Source of the DNA: Candidatus Woesearchaeota archaeon
GTDB lineage: Archaea > Nanobdellota > Nanobdellia > Woesearchaeales > JAZDKJ01
Direction: 5' to 3'
Assembly (NCBI GenBank): GCA_043803105.1
Contig: JAZDKJ010000006.1
Location: forward strand, 364,222-428,221
Length of the DNA: 64,000 nt
Positions 7,433 to 44,657 of the stretch are shown in pieces; the first letter of the stretch is position 1; every line of letters starts with the position of its first letter. Both the position numbers and the translations under genes were made by a program. The notes below the pieces were generated by a model. It was not told where the DNA came from, ran no database searches, and saw only the letters and a program-made list of their open reading frames with translations.

Positions 7433-7559
7433 TCCCCGAGGCCGGAGTCGAACCAGCAACCTTTCGGTAACGGCTGAGTGTTTTTCACATTCTGCACTGA
7501 GTGCAATATCAAAACACTATCCCTACAGCCGAACGCTCTAGCCATTGAGCTACTCGGGG
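7433..7559 (-). tRNA. tRNA-Tyr: tRNA-Tyr(GUA), 127 nt, one canonical 54-nt anticodon-loop intron
   Basis: Hand parse: CCCCGAG TA GCTC AATGGCTA GAGC G TTCGG CTGTAG[54-nt intron]A CCGAA AGGTT GCTGG TTCGACT CCGGC CTCGGGG A. The C1-G72 pair is the archaeal/eukaryal Tyr identity pair. Confidence 0.85.
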
Positions 7560-7636
7560 AAGCTTTTTTCCTTAGGAAAAAACCTTGGAAAATATGTTTT
7601 TGCCAAGGCAAAAACGCTGCCTTTAAGGCAGCTAAA

Positions 7637-7679
7637 GTTGCGAGCTGACTTTTCAGCTCAGCTATTGAGCTACTCAGGG
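7637..7679 (-). ncRNA. Truncated degenerate copy of the tRNA-Tyr 5' end (nt 1-24), ending within and continued by a conserved 23-nt hairpin
   Basis: CCCTGAGTAGCTCAATAGCTGAGC compared with the genuine CCCCGAGTAGCTCAATGGCTAGAGC (the D-loop GG is reduced to AG). The hairpin GAGCTGAAAAGTCAGCTCGCAAC (7659-7637) starts at the copy's last GAGC. The same hairpin occurs at 29650-29672 and 41291-41313. Confidence 0.6.
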
Positions 7680-10156: not shown

Positions 10157-12328
10157 CTAACTTACCTCTGGCGCAACAAACTGTGAATAATCGTTAACTG
10201 TGTAATCTACCTGTTTTGTCTTGCCGTCGCAGTTATCATCGACAGTGATCTTTCCGCTTAGCCTGCTGCCATCAATGACTGTCTCAGTGATGCTGTTTAC
10301 CTCAAGGTTCTGGTCTGAGAGGAAATCCACCATGCAGTAGAATTTTATTTTGCTGCCCCTTAGGCTGGTTGCTTTCCATCCAAAGTTCCCGTTGCCAATT
10401 ATCCAAGGTCCTTCGTAGTTGGAATGCGTCAAGGGATTGTTGTCAAAGTCCACTGTCACTGTGTTGTCTCCTTCTTTATAGGTTGAGGGCTTTATGACCA
10501 CGTTGCCTTTGGCCAGCATTCCCACCCGATAGTTTCCGCTTCCTATTATCATGCTCTTCATTGTTGGGTATAGGACAGTAGGGTTTGCAGACGCCCCGTT
10601 TATTGATATTGTTATCTCGTCTTTTGGCCTTGGCTGGTAGCGTGTTTCCTGCAACATTTCTTCAGGTGTTTTTCCGCAGCTGCTTCGTAAATATCCATTT
10701 GTCAGATAATAGTTCTCCAGGAATTTTCTTGCAAGCACAAGCTCCACTTCAATGCTGTAATTCTTCAGTTTCTCCAGTTTGTATTCGCTTTTTACAGCAT
10801 CAACAATCGTGCTGTAACCTGCCTTCTGCAACTTAAGCTGGAGCCCTGCGCATTTCGGCAGCTTTAAGGAGGCTCTGCCGCTGGAGGCTGTCTCTCCTGC
10901 ATCGCATTCGTTGATTGTGTTGTTGCATTGGAATCTGACACCAACTCCAGGCAATAATCCTGTTTCATTCGTTGTGACTACACTAGCCTGCGTGCTTACG
11001 TTGTTGCAGTCAAAGACACTTTTCATGGTCTCGCTTCCGAAAAATGCTGTCAGGTTCACTTCGCTATATGGATTCTGTCCAGTGCACTGCCTGTTCTGGT
11101 TTCCGCACAGGAAGAGTTGCATCGGGAAATAAAACGAGAAGCCCTGTTTTTCCTGCACCAAATTACCAATAATCTTGGCAGAATCGCTGTCTGTGATTTT
11201 TATCACCACAGGATGTGTCAAGAAGTACTTGAACCTGTAATCATAAATGCAGAAGCTTGGGAGGAATGGTATGCTTGTCTGCGATTCCTTGTCCGGGCTA
11301 ATCACGTTGCCGCTTGTGGGTTTGATGTCAAATTTGTTATCTGATTGTGCAGGGTAACTGAATTCTACGCTTATTGAGCTAAGATTTTCGAAATAATTCC
11401 TGATAAAGCTGTCATAAACTCCCTGGACTGAAGCGTCGTTTGAAATCACTCTTTCAAACTTTGTTCCGGCCATCTTTAGGTATGGAAAATTTTTTGAAAG
11501 TATGCCTTCAAGATTTTCCTTGACTTCATCTTTCGTCCATGTTACGTATTTGCAATCTGTGCTTGAGTCAGAGAAGCTGAACGGCGGAAGGTCTTTTGCT
11601 CCCTTTTCTGCCCCGGTATAGCTGTACAGAGAAATCAGTGACTTTGCGTGGTCTTCAAGATAAGTGTCTGCAAACTCTCTTGTGACTAATTCCATAGCTA
11701 TCTCATGGATCAGCGCCAGGTTTACATCCACCTGATAATTGTAGTTGTCCACTTCATACTGTTTTTCGTTCTGTGTGATCTGGATTGGCCAGTGAAGATC
11801 AATTGTTGCCTGTTTGCCGAACCTCACTGTGGTGTTTATTGTTCCAGTCTTGATAACATAACTTTTTTTTCTGAAGACCTCAAAGTCCGTGCATCTCGGC
11901 AGGTTTTCTGTGATGTATCTAGCTAGCTCATTTTGCATGTAATCTGTTGAAGGTACAGAAATCGAATCTTCGGTGATCCAGTAAGGGACCTTGTTCTTTC
12001 CTGTGGCGTCAATAACCTGAATCATGCTCCCAGTTTTAACCACAGTCCTATCGCCGCTTATGCCTGTTGTTTGTAGCTCGGTAGGAATGTATATGAACCC
12101 CGCCTGAAGCCCAAGGATTTCTATTCCTGAATTTGCATAATCACTTAGACACTGTTCCACATATGTCTTAACCTGTTGAGCAGGCTCTGCAAGTTGTAAT
12201 GCCCTTACCTGTTCGACCTGGATTGGCTGCTCTGTTGTTCTTGCCCAGCTAAAGTAGAAGATTGCCGCAGCTATCAGCATGATTATTCCGATGATTATGA
12301 ATATGGTTATCTGTCCTCTTTTTTCCAT
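10157..12328 (-). CDS. large extracellular protein with class III (type IV pilin-like) signal peptide
   Basis: 723-aa ORF. The N-terminus MEKRGQITIFIIIGIIMLIAAAIFYF matches the archaeal prepilin pattern: basic residues, G-Q cleavage site, then a hydrophobic helix. The rest is unrecognised. Confidence 0.6.
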   Translation of the reverse strand: MEKRGQITIFIIIGIIMLIAAAIFYFSWARTTEQPIQVEQVRALQLAEPAQQVKTYVEQCLSDYANSGIEILGLQAGFIYIPTELQTTGISGDRTVVKTGSMIQVIDATGKNKVPYWITEDSISVPSTDYMQNELARYITENLPRCTDFEVFRKKSYVIKTGTINTTVRFGKQATIDLHWPIQITQNEKQYEVDNYNYQVDVNLALIHEIAMELVTREFADTYLEDHAKSLISLYSYTGAEKGAKDLPPFSFSDSSTDCKYVTWTKDEVKENLEGILSKNFPYLKMAGTKFERVISNDASVQGVYDSFIRNYFENLSSISVEFSYPAQSDNKFDIKPTSGNVISPDKESQTSIPFLPSFCIYDYRFKYFLTHPVVIKITDSDSAKIIGNLVQEKQGFSFYFPMQLFLCGNQNRQCTGQNPYSEVNLTAFFGSETMKSVFDCNNVSTQASVVTTNETGLLPGVGVRFQCNNTINECDAGETASSGRASLKLPKCAGLQLKLQKAGYSTIVDAVKSEYKLEKLKNYSIEVELVLARKFLENYYLTNGYLRSSCGKTPEEMLQETRYQPRPKDEITISINGASANPTVLYPTMKSMIIGSGNYRVGMLAKGNVVIKPSTYKEGDNTVTVDFDNNPLTHSNYEGPWIIGNGNFGWKATSLRGSKIKFYCMVDFLSDQNLEVNSITETVIDGSRLSGKITVDDNCDGKTKQVDYTVNDYSQFVAPEVS

Positions 12329-29572: not shown

Positions 29573-29580
29573 TTTATAAA
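29573..29580 (+). promoter_or_regulatory. TATA box (TTTATAAA) upstream of the tRNA-Pro locus
   Basis: Read directly. Lies 57 nt before the truncated copy at 29638. Confidence 0.4.
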
Positions 29581-29637
29581 TCACTGGTCGGCTCTGTACA
29601 ATAATCAAGGAGCAGTACACTTGACCTTACAATCATT

Positions 29638-29672
29638 GGGGCTGCGGGGGAGCTGCGAAGTCAGCTCGCACC
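29638..29672 (+). ncRNA. Truncated degenerate copy of the tRNA-Pro 5' end plus conserved 23-nt hairpin
   Basis: GGGGCTGCGGGGG compared with the genuine GGGGCTGTGGGGT (U8 replaced by C). The hairpin is GAGCTGCGAAGTCAGCTCGCACC (29650-29672). The leader ACAATCATT matches ACAATCAAT before the real tRNA. Confidence 0.6.
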
Positions 29673-29710
29673 TTCGTGGGACATAAAGTCCCCCTGACAT
29701 CACAATCAAT

Positions 29711-29827
29711 GGGGCTGTGGGGTAGCTTGGTCTAGCCTATCTGGTTTGGGGCAATGCAAAAAACCAGATGACCCCGGTTCGAAAGTTTTATAAAAGGCTG
29801 ATTAACTCGAAAATCCGGGCAGCCCCA
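29711..29827 (+). tRNA. tRNA-Pro: tRNA-Pro(UGG), 117 nt, two introns (12-nt anticodon loop, 30-nt T-loop)
   Basis: Hand parse: GGGGCTG TG GGGT AGCTTGGTCTA GCCT A TCTGG TTTGGG[12 nt] CCAGA TGAC CCCGG TTCGAAA[GTTTTATAAAAGGCTGATTAACTCGAAAAT] CCGGG CAGCCCC A. The mature length is 75 nt. Confidence 0.85.
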
Positions 29828-29905
29828 CTCATGTTCGTGGTTGGTCTTCCCAATGGGAAGACGCACCCTTTAGGGTGCCGATGCAGTCAACAGGCATTTC
29901 TGTTG

Positions 29906-29921
29906 ATCCGGGCCGCCCCCA
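29906..29921 (+). other. Degenerate duplicate of the tRNA-Pro 3' end
   Basis: ATCCGGGCCGCCCCCA compared with the genuine ATCCGGGCAGCCCCA (29813-29827). Preceded by three hairpins (29828-29905). Confidence 0.45.
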
Positions 29922-29977
29922 CTCAGTTTTGTTGGCTAAAAACATGGGAAAACGCTGCACAAAGGGCAATTCGCAAA

Positions 29978-30286
29978 ATGGGAGAAAAACAATTCGGTTC
30001 AATCAAGAGGTTTGGAGCAAGGTACGGTCGTACTGTCAAACATAACCTCGCAAAGATAGAGGAAGGATTAAGGAATTTCCAGAAGTGCCCGTACTGTTTT
30101 GCAGTCAAGGTCAAGAGAGTATCTTCTGGAGTGTGGCATTGCCGCAAGTGCGATGCCAAGTTTACAGGCAAGGCATATATTGTTTCAGGCAAGCTAAAAC
30201 CTATTGTCCTTGCAAAACCTATCGAGGAAGTTGATGAGGAGATGTCTTTAGGGAAAAAGAAGGAAAAGGTTTCTGAGGAAGAATGA
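29978..30286 (+). CDS. rpl37ae: 50S ribosomal protein L37Ae (L43e)
   Basis: Internal Met of the ORF-track ORF 29768..30286: MGEKQFGSIKRFGARYGRTVKHNLAKIEE...CPYC...CRKC. The longer ORF overlaps the tRNA. Confidence 0.9.
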   Translation: MGEKQFGSIKRFGARYGRTVKHNLAKIEEGLRNFQKCPYCFAVKVKRVSSGVWHCRKCDAKFTGKAYIVSGKLKPIVLAKPIEEVDEEMSLGKKKEKVSEEE

Positions 30287-39088: not shown

Positions 39089-39242
39089 CGCCCGGTCAGG
39101 GATTTTCACTTGATGAGATTTGAACTGTCAGAAATTCACTGAATTTCTGAGCATGCTCGGAAACATAGTTTCCGACACCTGGAGACCTGTGATGGTCAAT
39201 TGCTTTTCAGGCAACCGCGATACCCGATTACGCTAGCCCGGC
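39089..39242 (-). tRNA. tRNA-Phe: tRNA-Phe(GAA)-like, multi-intron, imperfect acceptor stem
   Basis: GCCGGGC TA GCGT AATCGGGTA TCGC G GTTGC CTGAAAA GCAAT TGAC...[hairpin-rich insert]...G TTCAAAT[CTCATCAAGTGAAAAT] CCCTG ACCGGGC G. The acceptor pairs only 5/7 and the T-stem 5' strand needs a further intron. Confidence 0.4.
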
Positions 39243-39360
39243 CTCGCACATTTCTAAATTGACCTGAACCTTAATATGTTCAATTGAGAATTTTCCGTAA
39301 GTTCTGCGACAAAACCGAGCAAAATCTTATATACCAGAATGCTTACAAACTTTATGACCT

Positions 39361-39389
39361 GCGATTTAATTACCTGATTACGCGAGCCC
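39361..39389 (-). other. Partial duplicate of the tRNA-Phe-like acceptor 3' end plus D arm
   Basis: GGGCTCGCGTAATCAGGTA[ATTAAA]TCGC compared with GGGCTAGCGTAATCGGGTATCGC (17 of the first 19 nt identical). A TATATAAAAA box abuts it at 39390-39399. Confidence 0.5.
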
Positions 39390-39452
39390 TTTTTATATAG
39401 TATTTTCTGTAGATTTGACCAATGGCTCAAGTAGCCTTGGCCAGAAATAAAA

Positions 39453-39654
39453 TGGGGCTGCTGGGATTTCCATGCTTCTAGGACGGTCTTTTGGCATCAG
39501 CCAAAAGCCTTTTCCCAGGTTTTTGCATATTGCAAAAAGCTGTTTGGACCCAGATTAGGAGGTTTTCCGCTGAAAACCTTAGGTCAAATGCCCCGAACCT
39601 CCAGTGATAGTTTCTCGAAGAGTTTCTCTCTTCTCCAAGTTACACTACAGCCCC
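39453..39654 (-). tRNA. tRNA-Pro: tRNA-Pro(CGG), 202 nt, three introns (D-loop 25 nt, anticodon loop 28 nt, T-loop about 76 nt)
   Basis: GGGGCTG TA GTGT AACTTGG[AGAAGAGAGAAACTCTTCGAGAAAC]TA TCAC T GGAGG TTCGGG[28 nt] CCTCC TAAT CTGGG TCCAAAC[AGCTTTTTGC...GCATGGAAAT] CCCAG CAGCCCC A. Confidence 0.7.
39635..39654 (-). repeat. 20-nt perfect direct repeat, copy 1 (first 20 nt of tRNA-Pro(CGG))
   Basis: GGGGCTGTAGTGTAACTTGG, identical to 41164-41183. The flanking bases differ on both sides. Confidence 0.9.
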
Positions 39655-41074: not shown

Positions 41075-41183
41075 TTTCGAATTCCGGTCGGACGCATTCT
41101 GGTTTCATCCTCAAGCGTAAGTGATAGTTGCTTCAGGCAACCGAGCGAACTGGTTGGCGCTGGCCAAGTTACACTACAGCCCC
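41075..41183 (-). pseudogene. Truncated tRNA: Pro-like body, anticodon GAG, no 3' acceptor strand nearby
   Basis: GGGGCTG TA GTGT AACTTGG[37-nt insert ending AAGCAAC]TA TCAC T TACGC TTGAGG[12 nt] GCGTC CGAC CGGAA TTCGAAA... No CAGCCCC follows before the tyrS stop. Confidence 0.5.
41164..41183 (-). repeat. 20-nt perfect direct repeat, copy 2
   Basis: GGGGCTGTAGTGTAACTTGG, identical to 39635-39654. Confidence 0.9.
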
Positions 41184-41290
41184 GTTGATTGTTATTGTTT
41201 CGCGAAGCTCACAAGAAACCTGATAGTTTCTTGGGAGTCCCAAAAAACTTCAAGTTTTTTGTGACGAAAGGCGACTGAAAGGAGTGTAAA

Positions 41291-41330
41291 GGTGCCAGCT
41301 GACTTCTCAGCTGAGTAGCACTACAGCCCC
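41291..41330 (-). ncRNA. Truncated tRNA 5' copy (GGGGCTGTAGTG...) plus conserved 23-nt hairpin
   Basis: GGGGCTGTAGTGCTACTCAGCTGAGAAGTCAGCTGGCACC. The hairpin CAGCTGAGAAGTCAGCTGGCACC (41313-41291) carries a compensatory C1/G18 change relative to the other two copies. Confidence 0.6.
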
Positions 41331-44031: not shown

Positions 44032-44657
44032 TTGAATAGTCTGCTTATTGAGTCAAGGTCTGTTTGCCCGGCATCTGTTTTAGCAGGTTTTTCTGCAGGT
44101 TTTTTCTCTTCTACATGGCTCGTTTCTCTTTTTGCAGGCAGTTCCTCAGTTACCATATCCTTCACTCCCAAGATTTCATAGAGCCGCTTCTTTATCCTTT
44201 TCTGCACTTCATGCATGTCGTTTGCAGTCATCTGCTTTGCGGGAAGCTTGAACTCGATTCCATCGTCTGCCATTCTCGGTATGACATGCATCATGAAGTG
44301 CTGCGCCTTCTGGCCTGCCACTAATCCGTTGGCAATAAATACTGTGGTTCCTCCTGCCTTAAGGCCTTTCAAGATTGCGTTTGACAATCCCTTGGCTACT
44401 CTGGAGAGTTTTCCAGTAGTCTTGTCTGGGATCAAGGGCATTATTGCGTAATGCTCGTTTGGTAATAGCAAGATGTGTCCAGGATTTGCAGGATTGATGT
44501 CAAGGACTGCAGTGCAGTCATCGTCTGAGAAAAGCTTTCTTGATTGTACCTTGCTGGAAATTATTTGGCAGAAAATGCATTGCTTTTTTTGGAACTCCTT
44601 GAGCTCTTCTGGAGACATGTTCTTGATTTTTTCCTCATACTCCTGCTGCGGGTCCAT
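44028..44657 (-). CDS. HIT-family protein with partial histidine triad
   Basis: Internal start MDPQQEYEEK... (44657) of the ORF-track ORF 44028..45026. Contains CIFC and a triad position reading QHFMMHVIPR. Acidic/Lys-rich C-terminal tail. Confidence 0.7.
   Translation of the reverse strand: MDPQQEYEEKIKNMSPEELKEFQKKQCIFCQIISSKVQSRKLFSDDDCTAVLDINPANPGHILLLPNEHYAIMPLIPDKTTGKLSRVAKGLSNAILKGLKAGGTTVFIANGLVAGQKAQHFMMHVIPRMADDGIEFKLPAKQMTANDMHEVQKRIKKRLYEILGVKDMVTEELPAKRETSHVEEKKPAEKPAKTDAGQTDLDSISRLFK

Follow-up and report, generated by a model that had tools for sequence, protein, structure and literature searches.

Mobile DNA is known to leave its mark in the form of partial transfer RNA (tRNA) genes next to intact ones, and the introns of archaeal tRNAs are known to spread from gene to gene. 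Integration by integrases into tRNA genes of archaea has been described for SSV1, pNOB8-type elements, PYG1, and Thermococcales proviruses, where partial gene copies remain at the attachment (att) sites attL and attR (PMC9897764, PMC3293823), and Sugahara et al. reported a 5′ fragment upstream of a tRNA gene that had gained an intron. Noncanonical bulge-helix-bulge introns "transpose" in the Thermoproteales (Fujishima et al. 2010, summarized in PMC4090602), and tRNA gene disruption is increased in DPANN archaea, including Woesearchaeota (PMC5829648). The transposition of archaeal tRNA introns is thought to proceed at the DNA level, its mechanism being an acknowledged open question (PMC4090602). 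Here, we analyzed a tRNA-Pro(UGG) gene of a Candidatus Woesearchaeota archaeon (GenBank assembly GCA_043803105.1) that lies at positions 29711 to 29827 of a 64,000-nucleotide (nt) stretch of contig JAZDKJ010000006.1; this whole stretch is referred to as the window, and positions are counted from its first nucleotide unless another locus is named. The gene is bracketed by displaced, partial copies of both of its own ends. We consider it reasonably probable that each side received at least one short, hairpin-rich insertion that duplicated the adjacent gene end, and that the insertion on the 5′ side belongs to a family that recurs at tRNA genes of Woesearchaeota.

The locus resembles the scars of integration in that a complete and a truncated tRNA copy form direct repeats around inserted DNA and one gene has been hit repeatedly. 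However, integration scars enclose 1.8 to 23 kb with a recombinase gene, whereas the inserts described here measure 41 to 100 nt, contain no open reading frame (ORF), carry a conserved hairpin module on the side of the breakpoint, and are found at non-tRNA sites and on both sides of one gene. As with the introns of Thermoproteales and DPANN archaea, closely similar short sequences occupy the D-loop and the T-loop (59/60) of unrelated tRNAs; in relatives, the module heads genuine introns of tRNA-Glu, Gly, Cys, Ser, and Val, and the tRNA-Pro gene analyzed here has two ordinary introns. In contrast to those introns, the modules of the window lie outside the mature tRNA, beside a duplicated gene end, and could not be spliced by that route. 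We know of no report of flanking copies for the Thermoproteales introns. The locus comprises the following features.

29573 to 29580, plus strand: TATA box TTTATAAA, the putative original promoter of tRNA-Pro, judged by the archaeal promoter consensus
29609 to 29615, plus strand: tentative outermost 5′ copy GGAGCAG, very decayed, of weak similarity and read from the sequence
29629 to 29654, plus strand: outer 5′ copy, consisting of 9 nt of leader and tRNA positions 1 to 17, with C at position 8
29650 to 29692, plus strand: conserved module of the 5′ insert, whose first 5 nt overlap the outer 5′ copy
29650 to 29667, plus strand: hairpin 1 of this module, GAGCTG-CGAAGT-CAGCTC
29668 to 29675, plus strand: linker GCACCTTC between the two hairpins of the module
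29678 to 29692, plus strand: hairpin 2 of the module, GGGAC-ATAAA-GTCCC
29693 to 29710, plus strand: short tail and inner leader copy ACAATCAAT (leader at 29702 to 29710), directly upstream of the functional gene
29711 to 29827, plus strand: functional tRNA-Pro(UGG), with exons at 29711 to 29750, 29763 to 29783, and 29814 to 29827
29751 to 29762, plus strand: intron 1 at position 37/38, central helix TTTG/CAAA
29784 to 29813, plus strand: intron 2 at position 59/60, central helix TTCG/CGAA, placed by the bulge-helix-bulge rule
29828 to 29864, plus strand: inner copy of the 3′ trailer and L37ae start region, with the pseudo-start ATGGGAAGACGC and the hairpin GTCTTCCCAATGGGAAGAC, aligning with 29921 to 29955
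29865 to 29905, minus strand: unique 3′ insert of 41 nt, reading CAACAG-AAATGC-CTGTTG, ACTGCATCG, and GCACCC-TAAA-GGGT
29906 to 29955, plus strand: outer 3′ copy, consisting of an A and the 3′ exon TCCGGGCCGCCCCCA, the original trailer, and the L37ae pseudo-start ATGGGAAAACGC (29944 to 29955)
29978 to 30286, plus strand: L37ae ribosomal protein gene, with its true start at ATG 29978 and the N terminus MGEKQFGSIKRFGARYG as in relatives

Both flanking copies stood up to comparison with shuffled sequence. The outer 5′ copy ACAATCATT-GGGGCTGCGGGGGAGCT (29629 to 29654), in which an earlier note on this stretch had already recognized the leader and gene start with C at the conserved U8, is identical to ACAATCAAT-GGGGCTGTGGGGTAGCT (29702 to 29727) at 23 of 26 positions, a score reached by none of 5000 shuffles of the 200 nt upstream. 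On the other side, ATCCGGGCCGCCCCCACTCA-GTT (29906 to 29929) aligns with ATCCGGGCAG-CCCCACTCATGTT (29813 to 29835), again with a score that 0 of 5000 shuffles attained; the same note had described this near copy of the 3′ end. Farther out, to 29864 and 29955, the 3′ similarity weakens, and the score of the part beyond the trailer was reached in 20 of 3000 shuffles. Only approximately 47 nt of unique DNA on the 5′ side and 41 nt (29865 to 29905) on the 3′ side therefore remain between the repeats, and neither stretch contains an ORF. The two copies on each side include flanking sequence (leader ACAATCA[A/T]T; trailer ACTCA..GTT..TTGG..ATGGGAA), and this leader was seen elsewhere only in the closest relative, locus L108, which fits a duplication in place. 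All the predicted hairpins were confirmed as well, at 29650 to 29667, at 29678 to 29692 (GGGAC-ATAAA-GTCCC), and, three of them downstream, at 29844 to 29905.

Each side of the locus consists of an intact gene end and a displaced, decaying partial copy with inserted DNA between them, and the view that the locus had been repeatedly rearranged was borne out as a description of the outcome. Both sides bear signs of more than one event. The heptamer GGAGCAG at 29609 to 29615, which is preceded by the leader-like ACAATAATCAA and lies 28 nt past the TATA box, may represent a third, heavily decayed 5′ copy, and the 3′ side suggests that the duplications extended into the start of L37ae, with an additional small duplication between 29944 and 29978. 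In having direct repeats of the tRNA gene end, one in the complete gene and the other truncated, the locus agrees with att-type duplications.

The inner gene is intact. Once both introns were removed, ARAGORN returned a canonical tRNA-Pro(UGG) cloverleaf (the construct kept one extra A in the T-loop); with intron 2 at 29784 to 29813, as read from the letters, the T-loop would have 7 nt and the tRNA 75 nt. Only the two inner introns have the 4-bp central helix with 3-nt bulges, and their removal yields a canonical tRNA. L097, L099, L101, and L110 carry orthologues whose exons are the same. Neither ARAGORN nor Rfam detected the unspliced gene. The TATA box at 29573 to 29580 is now separated from the start of the functional gene by 130 nt, and the tRNA is presumably still transcribed from this old promoter with a leader of approximately 105 nt, which RNase P would have to remove. 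A promoter carried by the tail was considered and rejected, as ACATAAAG at -29 to -23 fits at this locus and not at L043, L039, or the tRNA-Tyr locus of the window.

The comparison with related genomes that the earlier note had called for showed the inserted state. The gene order aRF1/tRNA-Pro/L37ae is conserved in relatives. The tRNA-Pro gene has no flanking copies in L097/L098, L110, and L101/L102, where aRF1 is 76 to 78% identical, and altogether the outer pieces are absent from four related lineages that have the same tRNA, as is the 3′ insert (29865 to 29905). The flanks are therefore insertions in this lineage and not ancestral structure. In L097, L110, and L101, the TATA box TTTATAAA, with CGAAACC before it, lies 23 to 29 nt upstream of tRNA position +1, and in the empty-site relatives the L37ae ATG follows 6 to 25 nt past the tRNA, which implies cotranscription. 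The closest relative, L108 (82%), already contains a decayed copy, with ACAATCAAT and AAAGGCAGGCGTAGCA at the equivalent place; its contig ends within this locus, just past the promoter. A different insert occupies the 5′ end of the same tRNA-Pro in L099/L100, in the form of three tandem units of approximately 50 nt. Each of these units (L099:2600-3010; L100 is the reverse complement) begins with a copy of the first 5 or 6 nt of the tRNA (GGGGCC or GGGACC), followed by a hairpin and …TTCGAGCGT.

The 5′ insert belongs to a recurrent family. It shows the sequence CAGCTGnnAAGTCAGCTG-GCACCTT followed by a second hairpin and abutting a partial gene copy, by which we defined the core family. Over 42 nt, which include hairpin 2 (GGGAC-ATAAA-GTCCC), it shares 93% identity with the L122 module. 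The hairpin that the earlier note had called conserved recurs in the window at 7637 to 7659 and at 41291 to 41313, both on the minus strand, with 0.00 to 0.06 chance matches expected. Extended by its linker (GAGCTGnnAAGTCAGCTC-GCAnC), the core is present in 3 copies, for which at most 0.06 would be expected, and all three come after a degenerate copy of the 5′ end of a tRNA-like gene that lies 50 to 130 nt downstream.

Outside the window, species-representative genomes scanned with the pattern AGCTGNNAAGTCAGCTNGCA gave 95 stretches, approximately 40 of which lie in Woesearchaeota or Nanoarchaeota bins and the rest in scattered bacteria; chance alone was estimated to yield on the order of 70 matches for 17 specified bases in such a collection. 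A stricter pattern gave 30 metagenome stretches. Altogether, approximately 54 distinct variants of the module were collected, nearly all from Woesearchaeota or Nanoarchaeota contigs, and bacterial and viral matches remained at chance level. A viral origin was rejected, the four matches in viral contigs being in unrelated, apparently coding sequence and without the following CCTT. The closing pair of hairpin 1 is of the Watson-Crick type in all 54 variants (CG in 37, GC in 12, AT in 4, and TA in 1), and the 46 nt past this hairpin are structured (median z of -2.3 over the 54 variants). The arms of hairpin 2, which comes in two length variants, covary as read directly from the alignment (GTGGG/CCCAC, GGGGG/CCCCC, GTGAG/CTCAC, ATGCG/CGCAT, GCGGG/CCCGC).

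The module occurs in five contexts, which we counted by our own reading of the printed sequences. At seven loci, a partial tRNA 5′ end precedes the module, which is in sense orientation, and the break lies within the D-arm or beside it (approximately positions 13 to 25). At fourteen loci, the module follows the reverse complement of a partial 3′ end and is thus antisense to the tRNA, with the break usually at T-loop positions 57 to 59. Without exception (21 of 21), these tRNA-side duplications have their partial copy directly against hairpin 1 and their intact gene on the far side of a variable, AT-rich tail. Third, the module forms the 5′ end of genuine introns of the D-loop and the T-loop, where no intact duplicate exists; removing the T-loop 59/60 introns restores tRNA-Cys, Ser, and Val, and removing those of the D-loop restores tRNA-Glu and Gly. 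Fourth, the module is found at non-tRNA sites with direct repeats of 10 to 46 nt, and fifth, within repeats of one genome, in a unit of approximately 220 bp that is bounded by inverted repeats and present in at least 15 copies. The identical part of the repeats spans 11 to 55 nt in blastn alignments, and the inserts elsewhere measure approximately 50 to 100 nt. Near-identical modules can have unrelated targets, as in L030 and L068 (1 nt of difference in 57), and an intron module (L115) and a 3′ insert (L133) agree at 49 of 52 positions.

Some individual loci deserve mention. In L060, L117, and L122, the module is antisense and directly abuts +1 of one orthologous tRNA (GGGCCCATAGCTCAG…), with no duplication. 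At L030:6400-6650, it is flanked by a 46-nt perfect repeat, apparently within a coding sequence of the opposite strand that is intein-like (…TGNHPYLTPEGWVKVTEL…; frame judged by eye). The repeat of approximately 220 bp, GTATTTGTTTAGC…GCTAAACAAATAC, belongs to the groundwater Woesearchaeota bin JACQXV01 (L001, L007, L016, L038, L041, L052, L066, and others), which contains a second repeat family carrying the module (L037, L064, L071).

In architecture, the 3′ insert of tRNA-Pro(UGG) matches the 3′-type members of the core family: a stem of 6 bp with a loop of 6 nt stands at the breakpoint, there is a GGCACC motif, the orientation is antisense, and the break falls in the T-loop, the first hairpin abutting the breakpoint of the outer 3′ copy. 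Architecture and orientation alone place it with the same kind, and it is only a candidate member of the family. The downstream stretch folds better than shuffled sequence (z of -3.0 on the plus strand and -5.2 on the minus strand), and the upstream leader folds no better than shuffles (z of -0.6 and -1.5). At permissive thresholds, Rfam gave no known RNA family for the module or the flanks except for a match to HgcC RNA (RF00062) below threshold. In this match, the model aligns downstream of the tRNA with a pair of adjacent GC-rich hairpins that have a UUUAGGG loop, and the alignment covers part of the tRNA itself; with 19.4 bits against a gathering score of 50, it was taken as chance, and it is missing from the result list of the whole-window search. 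Two further candidates were rejected. Hairpin 1 as a miniature bulge-helix-bulge intron (GCA as the bulge, CCTT paired to the 4 nt upstream) would require a pairing that, checked by hand, is inconsistent across copies, and a diversity-generating retroelement is at odds with just 2 of 8 differences between the 41-nt copies falling on A positions of the inner copy. The AT-rich tails show weak similarities to the flanks that are compatible with chance in AT-rich DNA.

In the mechanism that we propose, the duplication arose, as we infer, during insertion itself. The insertion would join the hairpin end of the module to a breakpoint within the gene, namely, in the D-loop after position 17 on the 5′ side and at T-loop position 59/60, with the insert in the opposite orientation, on the 3′ side. 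The sequence from the breakpoint past the gene end, approximately 26 nt at the 5′ side and approximately 50 nt at the 3′ side, would be directly duplicated. The inner side would regain an intact gene end, and the truncated outer copy would be displaced and decay, together with the old promoter (5′) or with the original downstream flank and the L37ae start (3′). Only outcomes that leave an intact or spliceable tRNA would be expected to survive, and such a filter would account for the three arrangements at tRNA genes, i.e., sense modules in or beside the D-arm with a 5′ duplicate, antisense modules mostly in the T-loop with a 3′ duplicate, and sense introns. If the duplication always extends upstream of the hairpin 1 junction, a whole gene could be regenerated with a repeat of at most approximately 60 nt solely by insertions that are sense in the D-arm region or antisense in the T-loop. 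The remaining sense insertions, being without an intact duplicate, would have to be spliced and would persist as bulge-helix-bulge introns. The combination of one precise end, one variable end, and variable repeats fits a target-primed or copy-in reaction better than the chemistry of integrases or DDE transposases.

Among mobile elements, transposable elements of the miniature inverted-repeat kind (MITEs) and retroposons resembling short interspersed nuclear elements (SINEs) are similar in being 50 to 100 nt long, numerous, and noncoding, with direct target repeats at their flanks. The dispersed copies with target duplications expected of MITEs were found, with repeats longer and more variable than typical; however, unlike in MITEs, there are no terminal inverted repeats, and by inspection nothing at the variable right ends matches the left end CAGCTGAAAAGT in inverted form. 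As in SINEs, one end is exact, the other is AT-rich and variable, and the repeats vary in length, but a known reverse transcriptase partner, a poly(A) tail, and an internal promoter are all lacking. The repeats of 11 to 55 nt exceed the usual length for either class. In the literature, we found no description of the module or of comparable miniature inserts.

Several points weigh against insertion with duplication of the gene ends. We found neither an enzyme nor an autonomous partner element, the elements are without terminal inverted repeats, and repeats as long and variable as these are, to our knowledge, unusual for prokaryotic transposition. For the 3′ insert (29865 to 29905), the loci that were fetched include no significant sequence relative. 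A test of the intron-type copies for short target duplications at their ends gave no significant result (combined p of 0.2), so that the unified model is not demonstrated for introns. As the module was collected by pattern, decayed and divergent copies are undersampled, and the conservation of its core should not be taken for selection. With an aRF1 identity of 76 to 78%, the empty-site relatives are distant, and hence exact preinsertion sequences cannot be obtained from them. Finally, the module persists at one tRNA locus in L060, L117, and L122 with compensatory changes in hairpin 2, and it may have been kept for function at that site.

The alternative that survives best, although we regard it as unlikely, is that the flanking copies are classical scars of site-specific integration, produced by a tyrosine recombinase acting on an attP site that copied the tRNA end, the element having been deleted later or being a miniature mobilized in trans. 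The outcome of integrase action is indeed alike, with a complete and a partial gene copy and direct repeats from a tRNA loop past the gene end (PMC9897764, PMC3293823), and in this sense the resemblance to att-type duplications that the earlier note had seen is an apt description. Repeated events at one site, as in the window and at L033 and L118, resemble tandem integrations at an att site, and intron gain was linked to such integration by Sugahara et al. The analogy breaks down at the inserts themselves, which have 41 to 100 nt without an ORF and would correspond to circles of 73 to 150 bp, poor substrates for a recombinase. Near-identical modules at unrelated tRNA and non-tRNA targets are flanked by different repeats, which would demand a separate attP for every copy, and the repeats of the locus include flank sequence otherwise seen only in L108. 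No integrase gene adjoins any module in the window, and none of the matches in viral contigs has a convincing context. An ORF between the tRNA-like fragment at 41183 and tRNA-Pro(CGG) that was considered as an integrase encodes a class I Trp/Tyr tRNA synthetase. Small inserts, the lack of a recombinase, and near-identical inserts at unrelated targets fit target duplication on insertion better than an attP borne by the element.

It is quite improbable that the flanks are functional parts of the pre-tRNA, i.e., signals for processing, chaperoning, or protein binding that are kept by the host. The core hairpin and the GCACCUU that follows it are very uniform, both hairpins stay paired through compensatory changes, the persistence of the module in L060, L117, and L122 points in the same direction, and the outer 5′ copy would be able to pair with the 3′ strand of the tRNA. 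However, four related lineages make the same tRNA without these flanks, and the 3′-type copies are antisense to the tRNA, so that transcription reading through them would not yield the module in sense. The module also occurs at non-tRNA sites and within the repeat bounded by inverted repeats, the outer copies are substituted at conserved tRNA positions (for example, C8), and the leader folds no better than shuffled sequence.

We attach even less credence to an origin of the 5′-type loci from an ancestral D-loop intron, in which a complementary DNA or other intronless copy would have recombined homologously on its 3′ side and illegitimately inside the intron, leaving the 5′ exon, the head of the intron, and then a complete gene. 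Such a route would explain the exact junction between copy and module, which coincides with D-loop intron positions (L076, L115), as well as the inner copies that start exactly at tRNA +1 (L043, L033) and the variable tail. It can yield neither the 14 antisense 3′-type cases nor the non-tRNA cases, and in the relatives of this locus tRNA-Pro(UGG) is without a D-loop intron.

A second tRNA-Pro gene with the outer copies as its ends, whether nested, as envisaged in the earlier note, or alternatively spliced, is hardly credible: the outer 3′ copy does begin exactly at the start of the 3′ exon, and the proposed 6-of-7 acceptor pairing of the outer pieces is arithmetically possible with a register shift only and without structural support, but no second anticodon arm or T-stem 5′ strand exists between or outside these pieces, position 8 is C instead of U, the pieces are absent from relatives, no splice motif is present (the TGTTGA before the outer 3′ copy cannot form a 4-bp helix with TTCG, whereas the inner intron has CGAA), the direct repeats on the 5′ side are not complementary to each other, and tRNA-Pro(CGG), the other isoacceptor for Pro, has a gene of its own at 39654 to 39452. 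Stand-alone pieces in a lineage known for disrupted tRNA genes also recall the split and permuted tRNA genes of Nanoarchaeum equitans, Caldivirga, and Thermofilum (PMC3218864); unlike those, the pieces described here are degenerate, are redundant with an intact gene, and have no complementary leader and trailer for trans-splicing.

Insertion with duplication of the gene ends bears on intron gain in that one short module is found in two states, as the head of introns inside tRNAs and as a repeat-flanked insertion outside them, with a strict rule of orientation. It is possible, if rather doubtful at present, that the hairpin module marks a mobile DNA element through which tRNA genes of Woesearchaeales gain introns at D-loop and T-loop sites. 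If this were true, bracketed loci would be footprints of a DNA-level mechanism of archaeal tRNA intron transposition, and the precise end, the variable end, and the long, variable duplications would point to a target-primed reaction that is new to archaea. In any event, the module provides a searchable handle on the insertion mechanism and on D-loop and T-loop positions as hot spots of introns. Such loci defeat standard tRNA finders and create misleading long ORFs, such as a 172-amino-acid "L37ae," and they may break metagenome assemblies; the contig of L108 ends inside the locus, perhaps for this reason.

tRNA genes in this lineage have several introns. With default settings, ARAGORN found no tRNA in the 64-kb window, and Rfam found tRNA-Tyr (7433 to 7559, minus strand) as the only one in the whole window. 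The other tRNA-like genes and modules of the window are listed below.

7559 to 7433, minus strand: tRNA-Tyr(GUA) with one intron and a decayed copy of its first 24 nt at 7679 to 7656
7659 to 7634, minus strand: core module at tRNA-Tyr, with three more hairpins beyond it, arranged as at tRNA-Pro
41330 to 41314 and 41313 to 41288, minus strand: tRNA 5′-end copy and module, respectively, ahead of a partial Pro-like gene that starts at 41183
39654 to 39452, minus strand: tRNA-Pro(CGG) with three introns (D-loop, anticodon loop, and T-loop), giving a canonical cloverleaf when spliced by hand
39242 to 39176 (region 39100 to 39390), minus strand: weak Rfam tRNA match of 22 bits with the anticodon loop CTGAAAA, possibly Phe

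At the tRNA-Tyr locus (7433 to 7679), no downstream copy was seen. The gene at 41183 has first-exon sequences in common with tRNA-Pro(CGG), an insert in the D-loop, and an odd anticodon arm (loop TTGAGGA), and it ends in the T-loop (41075 to 41330; …CCGGAATTCGAAAAG). No 3′ exon for it was found in the window, and the gene may have become a pseudogene or may supply the 5′ part of a tRNA that is split. The tRNA-Pro(CGG) gene was missed by ARAGORN and Rfam alike. The tRNA-like gene at 39242 has a direct copy of its 5′ region 150 nt upstream (39389 to 39371 versus 39239 to 39221; 17 of 19 identical) without the core module.

Around the tRNA-Pro locus lie housekeeping genes of archaeal type, which encode L40e, eIF5A, aRF1, L37ae, prefoldin beta, and a DRG-type GTPase. 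An ORF of 172 amino acids at 29768 to 30286 is an overcall of L37ae, whose gene is in frame with it and for whose orthologues the Pfam domain Ribosomal_L37ae is recorded, and pseudo-starts of the ATGGGA type lie ahead of the L37ae ATG at 29978, at 29853 and 29944. Elsewhere in the window, matches to C/D-box small nucleolar RNAs below threshold, SNORD29 with 31 bits at 11905 to 11968 (plus strand) and SNORD19 with 26 bits at 44602 to 44643 (minus strand), may correspond to archaeal C/D-box guide RNAs.

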